A DNA stretch of 64,000 nucleotides from a plasmid. Location of the stretch: NCBI RefSeq assembly GCF_056712565.1, contig NZ_JBWXXM010000004.1. The stretch is one strand, 5' to 3'. Below, in pieces: positions 7,655 to 15,001 of this stretch; the stretch's first letter is position 1, and each line of letters opens with the position of its first letter. The notes beneath the pieces are model-generated. The model was not told where the DNA came from. It did no database searches and worked only from the letters and a program-made list of their open reading frames with translations. The position numbers and the translations under genes were made by a program.

Positions 7655-8552
7655 GCACTGGAAAAACATTACTATTTATAAACTTTCTCGTGAGGCGGAT
7701 CTGACCGACTTAGAAGATAAAAAGAAAATGATCCTTTTCACGCCATGCGGTAGTCAGGATATGGCCAAGTTCGGTTTTGTATCGCCATTTGGTGATAATT
7801 CCGAAGTTATCGCTATGCATGGAAATGGTTTTATCCTTGTTGAAGCAAAGCGCGAAACAAAAATTCTTCCCCCGCCGGTTATCCAGCGAGCTATTCAAGA
7901 AAAAATTGAAAAACTTGAGCAAGAACAAGCGCGTAAACTGAAGAAAACAGAGAAGGACTCCCTGAAAGACGAAGTTCTGCATTCTCTTCTGCCACGGGCT
8001 TTTTCAAAGTTTTCTGTTATCCAGGCGATCTACGACGGTTCAACTAAACGTATCTATATCAATGCCAGCGCGCGGCAGGCAGAGGATATGCTCGCGCTTA
8101 TGCGTAAGTCTCTTGGTTCTCTTCCTGTTGTTCCCCTGAGTGTTGAAAATCCCATTGAATTAACGCTGACCGACTGGGTACGTGATGGTAGTGCTCCACA
8201 GGGATTTCAAATGGGGGATGCGGCAGAACTTAAGGCAGTGCTTGAGGATGGCGGTATTGCCCGAGTGAAAAAGCAGGATTTGGGAAGCGATGAAATTTCC
8301 ACACACCTGGAAGCTGGCAAGCTCGTCACTAAGTTGGCACTCGACTGGCAGAACCGCATTAAATTTACACTGGACCATAACTTCAGCCTTACCAGCGTCA
8401 AATTTGCGGATGAATTGCTTGAGCAGAACTCTGATATTGATAGTGAAGATGTTGCGCAGCGACTGGACGCAGATTTCTTCCTGTTAACCAGTGAAATTTC
8501 GTGCCTGGTTGATGCTCTGGTAAATGCCCTTGGTGGAGAGGCTAAGCAGTGA
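7647..8552 (+). CDS. hrdC: RdgC-homologue recombination-associated protein
   Basis: [13 protein letters not shown].. aligns by eye with E. coli RdgC along its whole length ([45 protein letters not shown]). Confidence 0.9.
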
Positions 8553-10813
8553 AAGAGCTGTGCTATGGATCTGTTTGCAGTGGAATTGAAGCCGCGAGTA
8601 TTGCCTGGGAACCGTTGGGTATGCGTCCGGCGTGGTTTGCTGAAATCGAGCCTTTTCCATCTGCCGTTCTTGCGCACCGCTGGCCCCATGTCGCCAACCT
8701 TGGCGACATGACAAAACTTGCCAAAAAAGTCCTGGCTGGGGAAATCGAATCCCCTGATGTGCTCGTCGGGGGTACGCCTTGTCAGGCATTCAGTATCGCG
8801 GGCTTACGTGGTGGGCTTGATGATGAACGCGGCGCGCTAACTTTGAAGTATGTGGAGCTTGCAAATGCAATTGACGACAAACGGTCTGAGTCCTTCCTCA
8901 AACCGACAGTTATCGTCTGGGAAAATGTCCCAGGAGTCCTGTCATCGGCAGATAACGCCTTCGGATGTTTCCTTGCCGGATTGGCTGGAGAAGATGCGCC
9001 ATTTGAACCAGGTGATCGACCTGAATCAGGAAAAAGTAACGCGTTCTGGCGGTGGGATGGCAAAACCGGTTGCCATGCTCCAAAGTGGCCGCAGTGTGGT
9101 TGTATTTATGGACCGCAGCGAAAGGTGGCCTGGAGAATCCTTGATGCCCAATACTTCGGAGTGGCACAACGACGCCGACGCGTGTTTGTTGTCGCAAGTG
9201 CTCGAACAGACCTCGATCCCGCAACGGTACTTTTTGAGTTCGAAGGCGTGCGCCGGGATATTGCGCCGAGCCGAAAAAAGAAGGAAATCGCTTCCGCCAT
9301 TATTGCAAATGGCGCTGCAATCAGTGGCGAAAGCCTAAATCCATGTCTACACGCTGACATTCCACCCGGTATGAAATCGACGAAAGCCGTAAACGCTTTC
9401 AGGATGGCAGCATTTGGGGAATATATTGACGATGAAACCGCATCGACAGTAAAGGCAAGAGATTTTAAAGATGCCACTGACCTTGCCGTTTTTAGCAGCA
9501 CAGGAGCAGGTTTTTGGTCAGAAGGGCATGGTACATTGCGGGCACGTGAGCAAGAAAGCCATGAGCATCTTGTTACATTGGCTTTTCCTGAGCGTATGAG
9601 CGGTACACAACATGCTGCAACTAAGAATACTTCACCATCTCTAATGGCTAAAAATCCAACAGCTGTTTGCTATGAAGTAAGAAACGCAGAAGTAGCTGTC
9701 CGCCGTCTTACCCCTGTCGAATGTGAAAGGCTGCAAGGTTTTCCTGATGGGCATACGTTGATCCCGACGGAAAAGCGTAAAAAAGTTAATTCAGATGAAC
9801 TGGCATATCTTCGCAATCACTATCCAGATTTAAGCGAAGAAGAGGCCGCGATGCTTGCAGCTGACGGACCGCGTTACAAAGCGATCGGCAATAGTATGGC
9901 AATACCAGTAATGCGCTGGATTGGCGATCGGATTACTAAGGCCGTATGTCGGCAGAAAGAAGGAAGTGAAACAAAAGAGCGAAAAGTTAAACCAGCGGCA
10001 GAATTCGAACGGTCCATATTCAAATGGGCTGGTGGAAAATTTGGTGTTCTGGAACAAATCTTTCGCTATTTGCCAGAAGGGAAGCGCCTGATTGAACCTT
10101 TCGTTGGTGGCGGAGCTGTCTTCATGAATGCCGGATACCAGGAAAATCTGCTAAATGATGTGAATGCTGACCTGATTAACTTTTACAAGACTCTGCAACG
10201 CGAGGCGCATTCACTTATCACTCTGGCACATCGTTTCTTCCAGGACTATAACACACAGGAAGGATACCTGGCAGTACGGAATGCGTTTAACAAACAAGTC
10301 TATGATGATTTACATCGCGCAGCGGCGTTTTTGTTCCTGAACCGACATTGTTTTAACGGATTGACGCGTTACAACCAGGCCGGTGAGTTCAATGTCGGTT
10401 ATGGGAAGTATAAAACTCCGTATTTCCCATTACAGGAGATGGAAGCCTTCCTCGGTGCGGAAGGGCGGTCTGAGTTTGTATGCGGTGATTTTGCAGCGGT
10501 GATTGAAGCTGCCGGAGAAGGAGATGTCATCTTTTGCGATCCGCCGTATGAACCGCTTCCAAATACAGAGGGATTCACGAACTATTCCGGTCATGACTTT
10601 AAGTTTGAAGAGCAAAAACGCCTGGTGTCTCTGTTGACGGATGCTCATCGTCGAGGTGCAAAGGTTCTCATTACTAACAGTGGCGCGCCAAATATCAGAG
10701 AGCTTTATCATGACAGTGGCTTCAGAGTGGAACCTCTTTTTGCCAGACGTTCTGTGTCTTGTAAGGGGGACACTCGAGGTGTAGCTCATGACGTTTTAGG
10801 TATATTGCTCTAA
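8549..10813 (+). CDS. dmt: Bifunctional DNA methyltransferase (N-terminal C5-cytosine MTase fused to a C-terminal Dam-like N6-adenine MTase)
   Basis: 754 aa. C5 motifs: [22 protein letters not shown] and the QGFP/GNS region. Dam motifs: FKWAGGK and DPPY. Confidence 0.9.
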
Positions 10814-10833
10814 TAAATTTATTAGTGTAATAT
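10804..10833 (+). promoter_or_regulatory. Bipartite C1 operator overlapping a sigma70-like promoter (Op72/Pban-like)
   Basis: ATTGCTCTAATAAATTT overlaps an inverted copy AAATTTATTAGTGTAAT. TTGCTC (-35) and TAATAT (-10) are spaced about 16 nt apart. Confidence 0.7.
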
Positions 10834-10994
10834 CGCCTCAATGAATCGTGATTTATAGAGCGATTTAGCTGTTAGCCGCGACAGGCGCGGCGGTAAGCAT
10901 GGCTGGGCCTAGCCCTCCCAGACAAACCACCGAGTTGCCAGGTTGACCATGCGCCTAAGTGGCAACGCCGAAGTGCGTTACGAGCTTCCAGTTT

Positions 10995-11020
10995 GCCCAT
11001 CTTCGGGTGGGCGTTTTTTT
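10995..11020 (+). terminator. Intrinsic terminator with UUCG tetraloop
   Basis: GCCCATC-TTCG-GGTGGGC followed by G and T7. Confidence 0.8.
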
Positions 11021-11200
11021 CAGGGTTTTCGTCATGGTTAGCGACTTTGCGGCGGTTTAGAAACTGACCATTAAAGTAAATGCAAACGATGATCTGATGA
11101 TGGTAGCGGCCTAAGAAGCCAGATGCCACGGGGTATGAGTCGTCCCCCGTCAAAAAATCGACCGCAGAGTGTCCCCGTCTGTGTATTAGGGAACGGGGAG

Positions 11201-11282
11201 GCACAACAGGTAAGGGCGCTGGTGTGATTAACCAGATGAACGAGAAGGGGCCATCTGTTGGTCAGCGTCCTTTCCTGTTGCG
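11201..11282 (+). ncRNA. Long-stem structured element A (candidate ncRNA or processing hairpin)
   Basis: The 5' arm GCACAACAGGTAAGGGCGCT pairs with the 3' arm AGCGTCCTTTCCTGTTGCG (17 of 19 pairs, including G.U). The 43-nt apical region contains its own hairpin. Confidence 0.5.
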
Positions 11283-11485
11283 TTTTCTTTTCAGCGTAAC
11301 AGCGGTGCTTAACAGCACTTTGGGTACAGTTCCACGAATTTACGGGTATATCCCGTCATGCTGAAGGCGCTAATCACGCTGGAAGCCAGGGTTGTGCATC
11401 CCCTGTTACCGAATTGCAGCCAGGGCGCGGTGCGCCGAAAAGCATACGGAGGTGGAAGCCCTCGCCGGAGACGTACCCGGCAAGT

Positions 11486-11560
11486 GATGGTGTAGCTCAG
11501 CGGTAGAGCAGTTGGCTGTTAACCAACTGGTCGGTGGTTCGAATCCATCCACCATCGCCA
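11486..11560 (+). tRNA. tRNA-Asn (GUU), CCA encoded
   Basis: Hand-folded cloverleaf: acceptor GATGGTG/CACCATC, anticodon loop CTGTTAA, T-loop TTCGAAT. Confidence 0.9.
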
Positions 11561-11562
11561 AT

Positions 11563-11638
11563 GCCGGTTTAGCTCAGTTGGTAGAGCGCCTGCCTTGTAA
11601 GCAGGATGTCAGCGGTTCGAGTCCGTTAACCGGCACCA
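11563..11638 (+). tRNA. tRNA-Thr (UGU), CCA encoded
   Basis: Acceptor GCCGGTT/AACCGGC, anticodon loop CTTGTAA, T-loop TTCGAGT. It starts 2 nt after tRNA-Asn. Confidence 0.9.
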
Positions 11639-11749
11639 ACACAACAGGTAAGGGTATTTTGCGACGTCGGAGATCGCCGTGCTTGGCAGAGGGTTCGAAT
11701 CCCTACGAAGTACCCTTACCGTTGTGATGAATGCGCAGGCTGATGCGCG
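11637..11749 (+). ncRNA. Long-stem element B with an embedded tRNA-like core, followed by a short hairpin
   Basis: An outer stem of 16 bp with a bulged A (ACAACAGGTAAGGGTA/TACCCTTACCGTTGT) encloses GCGA-cgtcGGaga-TCGC (D-arm-like) and AGGG-TTCGAAT-CCCT (T-arm-like). A GCGCA-GGCTGA-TGCGC hairpin follows. Confidence 0.55.
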
Positions 11750-11854
11750 AAAGACATTGCAGCTATTGCGGAAAAGAGCTGTTCGGCGGGGCAATTAAAC
11801 GCCCGTGAGAGTCTGAAATAACCGCAAGCCGGAGATCAGCACCGGTCATCACAA

Positions 11855-11922
11855 CACAACAGGTAAGGGCATTCTCCCTTATGGGGCTTGGCTTAAATGC
11901 ATCGAGTGCTCTTACCGTTGTG
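11855..11922 (+). ncRNA. Long-stem structured element C
   Basis: CACAACAGGTAAGGGCATTC pairs with GAGTGCTCTTACCGTTGTG (with U.G and G.U wobbles). The apical region is 28 nt and contains a CCC-ttat-GGG hairpin. Confidence 0.5.
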
Positions 11923-12058
11923 ATGAAGTGCAGCTCTTTGAAGCAACCAGAAGATAAGCATCTGGCTTCACAACATAAACCGCAGGAACGACCAATAAAC
12001 GGTAGTCCGTATGGAGAACACCCCGTTGAGGAAGAGGCCTGGCCGGAACCGTAACCGG

Positions 12059-12177
12059 CACTACAACGTTGAGAACACTGGCGTAACGGGGTCATATCCC
12101 AATCTACGAATAAATGTTGCGTTGCAGCGTGACAACCAGTGTTCTCAACATTGTGGTGAATGCACAGGCTGATGTGC
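12059..12177 (+). ncRNA. Long-stem structured element D plus a short hairpin
   Basis: A 23-position stem (22 paired): CACTACAACGTTGAGAACACTGG with CCAGTGTTCTCAACATTGTGGTG. The apical module GTAACGGGGTCATATCCCAATCTAC is shared with E. A GCACA-GGCTGA-TGTGC hairpin follows. Confidence 0.6.
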
Positions 12178-12335
12178 CGCAACTACAGTAGTGCGCGCTT
12201 TGCGGGGCTTGCTACAACCCTGTGTCGGAGTTCAGCACCGACCATCACAGTTTGATTCTCTGGCATGAGCATAACGCTGAAATAAGTCCAGTCTGGTGCG
12301 GCCCGATCACCCGCCGTTAGCTCCACGAAACGGAG

Positions 12336-12435
12336 CACGTAACAGGTAAGAGCATTCTCCTGTAACGGGTTCATATCCCAATCTACAGGTCCACCAGGAA
12401 TGCTCTTTCCGTTGCGGTGAATGCGGCTAAGCGCA
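12336..12435 (+). ncRNA. Long-stem structured element E plus a short hairpin
   Basis: CACGTAACAGGTAAGAGCATTC pairs with GAATGCTCTTTCCGTTGCGGTG. The apical hairpin is CCTGTA-acGGGttcatatCCCaatc-TACAGG. Element E differs from D by five double compensatory stem changes. Confidence 0.6.
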
Positions 12436-12565
12436 CGCGGAACAGTAAAAACAATCCTCCTTAATGGTTAAACATTCCGGCGTTAATTGTTAACTGGTTA
12501 ACGTCACCGGGAGGCACTCGGCACCGCAATCTAATAAATATGTCACTTTTATTGAGGGATAACCA

Positions 12566-13000
12566 ATGTTCGGTAAATTGTTCGGCAAGAAAGTCGCTTC
12601 TGCAAAAGTAGAGCTGAAAAAAGTTGAGAATCGCGATCTGATGGAGGCCATCATCGGTGGCTGTTTGTTGGTGTCTGCCGCTGATGGTGAAATCGAAAAA
12701 GAAGAAACAGCGAAACTTGATCAGCTTGTCCGCTCTAATCCGCGTCTTAGTCATTTTGGTAACGAAATTACTGCAACAATTACCCGCTTTACCGAGCAAC
12801 TGGAAGCTGGCTTCCGTGTTGGTCGCATGAATATCCTTCGCGAAATTGAAGATATCAAAAACGATCCAAAAGAAGCGGAAGAAGTATTCGTTAACATGCT
12901 GACAATTGCAGAAGCGGACGGTGAAATCGAGCCAGCAGAACACAAAGTACTGGAAGAAGTAGGCCGTCGTTTAGGTCTTCGTGTGGAAGATTATCTGTAA
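12566..13000 (+). CDS. tciA: TerB-like (tellurite/colicin resistance family) protein
   Basis: 144 aa. Acidic repeats ..AADGEI(E/D)K/PxE.. are typical of TerB, and the position matches P1 tciA. Confidence 0.8.
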   Translation: MFGKLFGKKVASAKVELKKVENRDLMEAIIGGCLLVSAADGEIEKEETAKLDQLVRSNPRLSHFGNEITATITRFTEQLEAGFRVGRMNILREIEDIKNDPKEAEEVFVNMLTIAEADGEIEPAEHKVLEEVGRRLGLRVEDYL

Positions 13001-13164
13001 TGGCAAGCAAGGCACGTATCGCAATCGCCATTGGTTTTCTCTTGCTGTCCGTGCTGGTGGATTTCACCAGCACAATCCTGTCAGTTTTATCGGACGGGGC
13101 GTTGGTGGCAGTAGCTGTAACATTGGTATGGCCGATATTAAAAACAGCTTCTAAGGATCAGTGA
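13000..13164 (+). CDS. tciB: Small membrane protein (54 aa)
   Basis: TAATG-coupled to tciA and hydrophobic (IAIAIGFLLLSVLVDF..). Below the ORF-track cutoff, so translated by hand. Confidence 0.55.
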   Translation: MASKARIAIAIGFLLLSVLVDFTSTILSVLSDGALVAVAVTLVWPILKTASKDQ

Positions 13165-13271
13165 TGGGCTTCTGGGATTTTGCTGACAAGCATCCAATTG
13201 TTCTCGTTGTCATTGCTGGCATAGTTGTAGGCGGTATTGCTGGCGTCATAGAAGCACTCAGGAAACAGTAA
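13164..13271 (+). CDS. tciC: Small membrane protein (35 aa)
   Basis: GTGATG-coupled to the previous ORF, with a single TM segment (IVLVVIAGIVVGGIAGVI). Confidence 0.5.
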   Translation: MGFWDFADKHPIVLVVIAGIVVGGIAGVIEALRKQ

Positions 13272-13274
13272 TCC

Positions 13275-13350
13275 GGCCCTTTAGCTCAGTGGTTAGAGCT
13301 GGCGACTCATAATCGCACGGTCACCGGTTCAAGTCCGGTAGGGGCCACCA
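13275..13350 (+). tRNA. tRNA with CAU anticodon (Ile2/lysidine-type or Met), CCA encoded
   Basis: Acceptor GGCCCTT/AGGGGCC, loop CTCATAA, T-loop TTCAAGT. The P1 counterpart is annotated tRNA-Ile. Confidence 0.85.
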
Positions 13351-13636
13351 TATTTGGTTGTAACACGGCGTCTGGCACATGCGTCGTTAGCGGTCTGGTG
13401 ACGTTAAAAGGGGGGAACCTTGCCCCTAGCTCAGGCAACGAACCAGGTAGCCGGAATGTGCAAGCCACCGTTTGTTGTTTCTCGGGTAAAGGGATTCACC
13501 ATCCTGGCGATTCGGTGTGACAGCCGGGAAGAGTCCGGCGCATTAATCCTGATTTTCTGGTGATGACTCATATCGTTAGGAGTGATTTGAGTATGCCGAT
13601 TATATCTGACATTCAGCACGCCTGGGTGGAGTGCTA

Positions 13637-15001
13637 ATGTCTGCATCCCCTCTTGAATCCATGCCAAATTCCCTTAGTGCAGAACAAGCTGTACTTGGTG
13701 GCTTAATGCTTGATAACTGCCGCTGGGATGAAGTTGCAGATCGTATAGTTGCTGATGATTTTTATACCAGTGCTCATCGTGAAATTTTCAGTGAGATGGA
13801 GAGGTTATTAAGTCATGGCAAACCGATTGATTTGATAACACTTGCTGAAGCACTTGAACAGAACGGTAAATTAGAACGCGCCGGTGGTTTTGCGTACCTT
13901 GCGGAGATGTCAAAGAACACGCCCAGCGCGGCAAATATTTGTGCTTATGCGGATATCGTTCGTGAACGCGCGGTTGTTCGTGAAATGATTTCCGTCGCAA
14001 ATGAAATAGCCGAAGCTGGATATGCGCAGGATGGCAGGGGCAGCAATGAATTGCTGGATATGGCCGAGCGCCGCGTTTTTGAAATAGCTGAAAAACGACA
14101 AAAGAGCGGTAGTGGTCCAAAAGATATCGCCAGCATTCTCGATGCAACGGTATCTCGCATAGAAGAGTTGTTTCAGCGACCACATGATGGTGTAACGGGG
14201 CTTGATACGGGATTTACCGATCTCAATAAGAAGACGGCAGGGCTTCAGCCGTCCGATCTCATCATTGTCGCCGCCCGCCCATCTATGGGGAAGACCACGT
14301 TTGCGATGAATCTCGTCGAAAATGCCGCAGTCCGTAACTATAAGCCCGTATTGGTTTTTAGCCTTGAGATGCCGAGCCACCAGCTGATGATGCGCTCACT
14401 GGCTTCTCTTGCACGCGTTGATCAGACTCGTATTCGAACAGGGCAACTTAACGACGAGGATTGGGCGCGGGTTTCTGGCGCAATGGGGATTCTGTTGGAC
14501 AAGCAAAATATTTTTATTGATGACTCAAGCGCCCTGACACCTACAGAGCTTCGTTCCCGCGCTCGTCGTGTTTATAAAGAAAATGGTGGTTTGAGCATGA
14601 TTATGATCGACTACCTGCAACTTATGCGCGTCCCCGAGCTGCAAGATAACCGAACGCTGGAAATTGCCGAGATTTCTCGCTCACTGAAGGCTTTGGCGAA
14701 GGAATTACAAGTACCGGTGGTGGCATTGTCACAACTTAATCGATCGCTTGAACAGCGTGCGGACAAACGACCGGTAAATTCAGATTTACGTGAATCAGGA
14801 GCAATTGAGCAGGACGCAGACCTGATCATGTTTCTGTATCGCGACGAAGTTTATCACCCGGATAGCGAAATGAAGGGCATTGCCGAGGTGATTATCGGTA
14901 AGCAACGAAATGGCCCAATTGGCACGGTGAGATTGGCTTTTAACGGCCAATACTCACGGTTTGATAACTATGCTGGTGCTGACTGGCAAGAGGATTATTA
15001 A
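13637..15001 (+). CDS. ban: DnaB-family replicative helicase Ban
   Basis: Walker A ARPSMGKTTF, plus IDYLQLM and QLNRSLEQRADKRP motifs. ATG at 13637 follows GGTGGAG; the ORF track starts at a GTG at 13631. Confidence 0.92.
   Translation: MSASPLESMPNSLSAEQAVLGGLMLDNCRWDEVADRIVADDFYTSAHREIFSEMERLLSHGKPIDLITLAEALEQNGKLERAGGFAYLAEMSKNTPSAANICAYADIVRERAVVREMISVANEIAEAGYAQDGRGSNELLDMAERRVFEIAEKRQKSGSGPKDIASILDATVSRIEELFQRPHDGVTGLDTGFTDLNKKTAGLQPSDLIIVAARPSMGKTTFAMNLVENAAVRNYKPVLVFSLEMPSHQLMMRSLASLARVDQTRIRTGQLNDEDWARVSGAMGILLDKQNIFIDDSSALTPTELRSRARRVYKENGGLSMIMIDYLQLMRVPELQDNRTLEIAEISRSLKALAKELQVPVVALSQLNRSLEQRADKRPVNSDLRESGAIEQDADLIMFLYRDEVYHPDSEMKGIAEVIIGKQRNGPIGTVRLAFNGQYSRFDNYAGADWQEDY

Follow-up and report, generated by a model that had tools for sequence, protein, structure and literature searches.

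What does a folded, noncoding RNA of about 180 nucleotides (nt) do when a C1-repressed promoter would place it ahead of the tRNA and ban genes of a P1-type prophage? The question arises at positions 10804-11020 of a 64,000-nt stretch of plasmid DNA (contig NZ_JBWXXM010000004.1, assembly GCF_056712565.1; the whole stretch is called the window here), where a preliminary description made from the letters alone had seen such a promoter, three hairpins and an intrinsic terminator, and had proposed either an attenuator or a discrete small RNA (sRNA). Comparison with P1 identifies the interval as the Op72ab/Pban control region of a P1-type prophage, and in this respect it is largely known already, as the repressor-controlled ban promoter of phage P1. 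What the comparison newly identifies is the leader RNA as a relative of long DicF, the 190-nt form of an RNA encoded in Qin-type prophages of E. coli.

The ban control region and the relation to long DicF

Over positions 10700-11700 the window is 98.6-98.7% identical to P1 (AF234172/3, NC_005856), with P7, SJ46 and RCS47 slightly below, and the NC_005856 annotation transfers onto it base for base at an offset of 57,863, which bears out the earlier equation with Pban/Op72. Few substitutions separate the window from reference P1, and the terminator T-run is 7 here and 6 in the reference; the operators, the promoter hexamers and their placement relative to dmt are all shared, with no substantive difference in a region 98.6% identical. 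Obanab (formerly Op72ab) is a divalent C1 operator spanning 10804-10831, at the same coordinates as in NC_005856. It consists of two inverted copies of the 17-mer, as first described; the placing of both after dmt does not hold, since the gene ends at 10813 and overlaps the operator. The copies overlap one another by 6 base pairs (bp), Op72b reaches the -10 hexamer, and together they cover both the -35 and the -10 hexamers of the promoter P1ban. C1-operator-like sites number 15 in the window, against 0.33 expected. The hexamers TTGCTC and TAATAT proposed earlier are those of P1ban, with a spacer that measures 17 nt and not 16, and the predicted P2ban of the P1 annotation maps just upstream. 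From P1ban, transcription would be expected to start near 10840.

The P1 GenBank record carries the label "dicF-like region", which maps to about 10928-11029. In a sensitive search of complete genomes, copies of 10876-10970 with ~76% identity were found in 4439 of 5426 E. coli genomes, at 1-9 per genome and nearly all chromosomal; the domain also occurs in 61 phage records, functional lambdoid and Stx phages among them. In Qin-type prophages (a K-12-type genome and O157:H7) it is found in the interval from ydfC to dicB, where it immediately precedes dicF, the match ending 26 nt ahead of mature DicF. Section 6 of a preprint describes two DicF species with a common 3' end, one of 190 nt whose 5' end RNase III generates and one of 53 nt whose 5' end RNase E generates (bioRxiv 10.1101/2023.04.14.536235, citing Faubladier 1990). 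Counting 190 nt back from the Qin terminator leads to a point just upstream of the first hairpin (H1), which makes the P1 hairpins the counterpart of the 5' body of long DicF. By this comparison the P1 RNA resembles that 5' body and not the 53-nt DicF sRNA. The Rfam search suggested in the preliminary description found no DicF (RF00039), riboswitch or ribozyme in the leader (10780-11500) even at E<=10, its only matches there being sub-threshold ones to tmRNA, and at gathering threshold the whole window yields three tRNAs and nothing else, DicF included.

The Qin and P1 RNAs share a domain of ~95 nt (hairpins H1-H3 with an invariant linker and H3 loop, at ~76% identity and with compensatory changes); in each, a Rho-independent terminator comes next on that strand, and beyond it lie genes that need read-through. 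They differ in that P1 lacks the 53-nt DicF body and its 26-nt flank, and in that the P1 RNA is a predicted primary transcript from a repressor-controlled promoter, whereas the Qin 5' end is cut by RNase III from a polycistronic messenger RNA (mRNA). In lambdoid prophages the domain precedes DicF or other sRNA bodies (L184, L134, L143, L147 and L152); in P1 a 27-nt stretch leads from it to the terminator, with no sRNA body. The 20-year-old "dicF-like region" label can now be pinned to the folded 5' body of long DicF instead of the antisense sRNA. The domain emerges as a separable, widespread pseudoknot module that in P1 stands without DicF and directly under repressor control, and P1 offers a clean system for probing what it does.

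All three hairpins of the preliminary description are present where it had placed them (Table 1), and 48 distinct domain sequences were aligned to assess their covariation. H3 is paired in 95.8%, with one pair switching between UA (38 sequences) and CG (10), and a pseudoknot, in which the linker between H1 and H2 pairs with the H3 loop, is paired in 99.7%, with UA, CG and UG pairs. MAFFT places H1 and H2 of the P1 type out of register with those of the Qin type, and H2 was assessed separately; its stem occurs in four variants, CGGGG/CCCCG, CUGGG/CCCAG, CUGGGG/CUCCAG and CCAGGUG/CACCUGG, all of which fold. The 19-nt H3 loop and the linker are near-invariant across P1-like and lambdoid phages despite the ~76% overall identity. 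The comparative evidence for the domain fold is consistent rather than overwhelming.

Two further observations concern Qin. The P1 sequence CTTTCCGTTGCGGTGAATGCGGCTAAGCGCACGCGGAACAGTAA (12405-12450, + strand) is closely similar to a stretch just downstream of dicF in Qin (L002, ~2690-2740), and by this likeness the P1 ban leader and the dicB operon have more than one module in common. Read by eye, an arm related to the bracket motifs of the P1 leader (see the last section) precedes the Qin domain near the RNase III end of the 190-nt species.

Table 1. Features of the ban control region and of the leader downstream (window coordinates; PK, pseudoknot)
Feature	Positions	Strand	Basis and remarks
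dmt (DNA methyltransferase)	8549..10813	+	Open reading frame list, P1 annotation; final codons inside operator
C1 operator Op72a (Obana)	10804..10820	+	Exact 17-mer ATTGCTCTAATAAATTT, 0 mismatches; P1 protein_bind 68667-68683
C1 operator Op72b (Obanb)	10815..10831	-	Inverted copy, 2 mismatches; inverted repeat I2; P1 feature 68678-68694
Promoter P1ban	10805..10833	+	-35 TTGCTC 10805-10810, 17-nt spacer, -10 TAATAT 10828-10833; P1 regulatory 68668-68696
Conserved structured domain (H1-H3 and pseudoknot)	10876..10966	+	~90 nt; homologous to long-DicF 5' body
H1 CCGCG/CGCGG	10876-80 / 10886-90	+	
H2 CTGGG-N9-CCCAG	10903-07 / 10917-21	+	
H3 GTTGCCA-N19-TGGCAAC	10934-40 / 10960-66	+	
Pseudoknot GCAUGG (H1-H2 linker) / CCAUGC (H3 loop)	10897-10902 / 10947-10952	+	
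Short tail	10967..10993	+	Small hairpin GAAGU 10970-74 / GCUUC 10984-88; at DicF's position, unrelated to DicF
Intrinsic terminator	10994..11020	+	7-8 bp G+C-rich stem 10994/5-11013, UUCG loop, U7 (T7 11014-11020); scan and folds
tmRNA-like RNA without tRNA-like domain	11023..11222	+	Noncoding; sub-threshold Rfam tmRNA matches, phage homologues
5' domain of tmRNA-like element	11041-11085	+	
Tag frame ANDDLMMVAA*	GCA 11082 to TAA 11112-14	+	
PK-a	11128-33/11145-50 and 11139-42/11159-62	+	
PK-b	11163-68/11178-83 and 11173-77/11195-99	+	
3' bracket motif	11202-11222	+	
tRNA-Asn	11486-11560	+	ARAGORN, Rfam; next gene by read-through
tRNA-Thr	11563-11638	+	ARAGORN, Rfam

Role of the leader RNA

We interpret the Op72ab/Pban region as being followed by the P1 counterpart of the long DicF RNA, whose domain probably acts by its shape. 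Once C1 is inactivated, sigma-70 RNA polymerase would initiate near 10840, and a fraction of the transcripts would stop at 11014-11020 to give a discrete, structured primary transcript of ~180 nt; an RNA of this length ending at a strong intrinsic terminator, as first described, is indeed what the sequence predicts. The remainder would read into ~1.5 kb of stem-bracketed RNA modules (an RNA resembling transfer-messenger RNA (tmRNA), tRNA-Asn, tRNA-Thr and others) and then into tciABC, trnI and ban. The terminator would fix the ratio of the short RNA to the ban operon and would reduce leaky ban expression in lysogens. The domain itself may be a self-contained folded module working by shape, either through binding of a protein or through protection or processing of the transcript. 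Antisense pairing is disfavoured for it, since the fold is retained in P1 while the seed region of DicF is lost.

Several points weigh against this interpretation. The P1ban hexamers are weak, matching the consensus at 3/6 (-35) and 4/6 (-10) positions, and the promoter is absent from the calls of a generic consensus scan, so that its standing comes from the P1 annotation; the start site, the termination efficiency and the accumulation of a ~180-nt RNA are deduced from sequence. The minimum free energy (MFE) of the 178-nt RNA, -62.9 kcal/mol, is not better than that of shuffles (z = -1.2), and the MFE structure lacks the three hairpins and differs from the comparative fold. For these two reasons folding energy was dropped as evidence for the hairpins, and the support for H2 and H3 is comparative. 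Covariation, which the preliminary description had proposed to look for in the hairpins, is seen in H2 and H3 and not in H1, which has zero compensatory changes in the alignment and is occasionally disrupted (its computed pairing of 37% is an artefact of alignment register). Most domain homologues are ~86% identical to one another, which leaves few independent covariation events, and action through shape is a default reading.

Of the alternatives, the one that survives best, and that we still consider unlikely, makes the domain a cis-acting RNA that alters polymerase in the manner of HK022 put, letting it pass the terminator, with the short RNA as a by-product. The order of domain, terminator and read-through genes recurs in two unrelated contexts, P1 (tRNAs, ban) and Qin (DicF terminator, dicB), the domain is transcribed first in P1, and put RNAs are promoter-proximal, folded, ~70 nt long and independent of protein factors (PMC9378689). 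The likeness, that of a folded RNA lying close to its promoter and ahead of terminators in an early operon of a phage, is however positional only: the domain has no sequence relation to put, none of the 61 phage records that carry it is HK022, and three hairpins with a pseudoknot differ from the two stem-loops in a V shape of put (PMC9378689). In Qin, moreover, domain-containing terminated products accumulate as the 190-nt species, going by the preprint section cited above, which indicates that such polymerases do terminate.

Ranking below this is the proposal that the RNA has no function, a cassette remnant serving as a spacer with an insulating terminator that would hold ban and the tRNAs low until induction. 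The mosaic character of the region would suit it. A boundary lies near 10992, from which point on D6 and plasmid NZ_CP122510 match the window and before which they do not; D6 (L239, 2500-2760) lacks the domain, has ~750 nt of unrelated noncoding sequence upstream, and keeps the terminator hairpin and everything downstream. In L097, whose context is D6-like, a DicF-type domain is inserted just before the hairpin, at the same junction and without a C1 operator; the terminator there is a compensatory variant (GCCCACC/GGUGGGU), and the tail between domain and terminator is unrelated to that of P1. The D6 boundary and the L097 insertion imply that the domain and the terminator-plus-downstream block are separate modules, and by this comparison a separate mosaic module, shared with D6 and encoding the tmRNA-like RNA, begins with the terminator hairpin. 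The unremarkable folding z-score of the whole RNA would also fit a functionless remnant. A remnant would not be expected to keep the pairs of H2, H3 and the pseudoknot through two-sided changes, to hold the H3 loop and linker near-invariant across P1-like and lambdoid phages, or to be retained in thousands of copies in E. coli prophages.

The least probable of the three, and one we regard as unlikely for the tail, is a trans-acting antisense sRNA like DicF, in which a 3' fragment of ~50 nt (tail plus terminator) would bind Hfq and repress host mRNAs such as ftsZ: it would suit the cell-division theme of the neighbouring tci genes, the tail sits at DicF's position downstream of the same domain, where the other prophages named above have differing sRNA bodies, and 3' ends that bind Hfq are usually terminator hairpins with a U-tail, but the DicF covariance model finds nothing at E<=10, the gap from H3 to the terminator is just 27 nt and mostly folded on itself or onto the 5' flank, the tail of the L097 relative is unrelated, and pairing of the P1 tail with the ftsZ translation-initiation region (-28.9 kcal/mol) is weaker than the average of shuffles (-34.6), in a crude comparison in which DicF itself is not significant.

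The terminator, read-through and the surrounding frames

The terminator was called by the scan with the UUCG loop and T7 described earlier, and it is the one element stable in every fold, being intact in both the MFE and the centroid structures. No helix competing with it appears in the MFE or centroid folds of the 178-nt RNA. The attenuator of the preliminary description is left without a structural basis and was rejected for lack of an alternative pairing against the terminator in these folds. The other half of that argument is upheld: expression of the tRNAs, tciABC, trnI and ban from Pban implies read-through, because these genes (trnA, trnT, tciABC, trnI and ban in the P1 annotation) lie downstream on the same strand and no other promoter-like site is called, the scan of the + strand from 10400 to 13800 returning zero. 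A P1vir transcriptome paper leaves ban, dmt, tRNA and dicF unmentioned.

The earlier statement that the ~180 nt contain no open reading frame (ORF) stands apart from mechanical TTG/GTG frames of 32-33 amino acids (aa) and a 110-aa frame on the minus strand. The latter, with a GTG start (10872-11204, -), spans the domain, the terminator and the tmRNA-like element, and is labelled "hypothetical protein" in the P1-like records JL22 and SJ46; given the conservation of the RNA it is probably spurious.

Phage N4 and its relatives have a tRNA-Asn with ~97% identity to that of P1, an indication that very different phages have exchanged RNA genes. Between the tmRNA-like element and tRNA-Asn lie ~260 nt of noncoding sequence (11223-11485, +) found in P1-like phages only. 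A hairpin GAGG-UGGAAGC-CCUC stands just ahead of tRNA-Asn, and a similar hairpin with a UGGAAUC loop precedes a tRNA in N4-like phages (L005).

A tmRNA-like element and the bracketed array

Directly downstream of the terminator lies what is apparently an undescribed phage RNA (11023-11222), which deserves a follow-up of its own. A permissive Rfam search matched 11009-11114 to permuted tmRNA (24.1 bits, E = 0.007), a match arising from a tag-like frame; relatives score 28-33.5 bits, and neither they nor the window reach the gathering score of 47. At a lowered threshold ARAGORN reads the tag ANDDLMMVAA*. With 10992-11485 as query, a sensitive search recovered 11024-11217 from 293 phage records of unrelated families, the carriers being P1-like phages, N4-like Schitoviridae, Ackermannviridae and Drexlerviridae. 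Four loci were inspected; none of them has the element annotated, and in all but CS01 it lies in or beside tRNA genes. When viral contigs were scanned for its pattern, more than 120 loci emerged, with 98 distinct sequences. The motif occurs in just 2 of 185,579 species-representative bacterial genomes, on which ground a bacterial donor was dropped. In two N4-like viral contigs, L091 (1264-2018) and L064 (2821-3573), the RNA-gene regions that bear the element also contain group I intron matches, scoring close to the Rfam gathering value or slightly under it.

The frame that starts with GCA has exactly 10 codons and a stop in 98/98 unique homologues, whereas the two other frames vary in length. 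Its last codon is GCC, GCG or GCT, its stop TAA or TAG, and the encoded peptides follow AN(D/E)(D/E/N)xxxx(A/V)A, the E. coli tag being ANDENYALAA. The stop codon lies within a hairpin, and two H-type pseudoknots (PK-a and PK-b) follow on its 3' side. On 49 diverse sequences the structure is 91% paired, against 36-42% with the partners slid; 18 of 29 pairs change on both sides, and 0/500 shuffles reach any of five measures.

With tmRNA (ssrA) the element shares the resume codon GCA after UAAAU, a 10-codon tag that starts AN(D/E) and ends AA or VA, the stop codon in a hairpin with H-type pseudoknots after the tag, and identity at 74 of the 94 positions that align with E. coli ssrA nt 90-230. 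It departs from tmRNA in lacking PK1 and having two pseudoknots instead of four, in scoring 24-33 bits where the Rfam gathering threshold is 47, and in lacking an acceptor stem (with G3:U70), T-arm and 3' CCA, all of which tmRNA has. ARAGORN at its default found no tRNA-like domain in the window or in the 98 homologous loci, and none of these three parts was found there. Candidates for the missing domain were rejected in turn: those proposed by ARAGORN at an 80% threshold were poor and implausible, an acceptor-like pairing GGUUUU/AAAAUC tested by hand in P1 is not conserved across other families, and orphan T-arm mini-elements lie near 20/98 loci only. A 2014 tmRNA census has phage entries only for mycobacteriophages, Bacillus phage G and DS6A (PMC4131195), and no description of a phage tmRNA-like or anti-tmRNA RNA was found in the searchable literature.

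Upstream of the tag the element resembles not the sense strand of ssrA but the reverse complement of its nt 41-92. These 45 nt (11041-11085) are highly conserved and have no conserved internal structure (consensus fold -0.85 kcal/mol, no covariation); they are complementary to E. coli ssrA nt 41-92 (L244:341-392), a stretch made up of PK1 and the bases immediately ahead of the resume codon. The P1 duplex with ssrA reaches -37.1 kcal/mol, against -25.5 +/- 2.7 for mononucleotide shuffles (0/300 as good) and -28.1 +/- 3.1 for dinucleotide shuffles (3/300 as good). All 49 of 49 family members find their ssrA optimum at nt 41-92 (ending 91-96; mean -37.8), and 94% beat the best of 40 control E. 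coli segments, with the limit that these members have the 5' domain in common and are not independent. Aligned to the reverse complement of ssrA 41-92, the domain is identical at 32 of 42 positions, with a score of 34.5 against 19.3 +/- 3.5 for shuffles (0/1000 as good). The paired blocks are GCGACU:AGUCGC, UUGCGGC:GCCGCAA, UUUAGA:UC(G)UAAA, CUGACC:GGUUGG and AUGCA:UGCAU, and the N4-type and T1/P1-type 5' domains pair the same host stretch in two different ways. Some of this complementarity is found in the host's 5' region itself, so part of the signal could be inherited.

These observations suggest to us, tentatively and with less than even confidence, that the element, carried on a mobile phage module, is a tmRNA derivative without a tRNA-like domain, with an antisense 5' domain fused to a sense tag frame and two pseudoknots, and that it docks on host tmRNA-SmpB. 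In this model GCGACUUUGCGGC would be the phage-side stretch set opposite ssrA 73-91. The phage RNA would then either block tagging by the host or put a tag template of its own (ANDDLMMVAA and relatives) in place of the host's, the latter giving a chimeric two-piece tmRNA. On the same proposal the terminator would be the front edge of a horizontally mobile RNA module, and the DicF-type domain another cassette of the stem-bracketed array that fills the P1 ban leader. If a phage RNA does pair with host tmRNA and bring its own tag frame, ribosome rescue would be a target of phage takeover and the element would be the first natural antisense partner of tmRNA found in the searchable literature; the docking idea is directly testable in P1 and E. 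coli.

From ~11200 to 12450 on the + strand, the P1 leader consists of an array of modules, with inverted motifs as their brackets. The 3' brackets, of the type CAACAGGTAAGGGCATT, lie at 11204, 11642, 11857 and 12340, where 0.14 would be expected in the whole window, and their 5' partners, of the type CTTACCGTTGTGATG, at 11715, 11911, 12144 and 12405. In T1-like and N4-like phages these brackets also enclose tRNAs, the tmRNA-like element and further small elements. The array underlies the minus-strand ORFs annotated plp and upl in P1, which for that reason may not be genes. Within it, at 11647-11720 (+), a small tRNA-like element, in which a T-arm with GGTTCGAATCC accompanies the hairpin GCGACGUCGGAGAUCGC, lies inside a 13-nt inverted repeat (11647-59 / 11708-20); the site has no tRNA call. 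A covarying relative of this small element directly follows the tmRNA-like element in L013.

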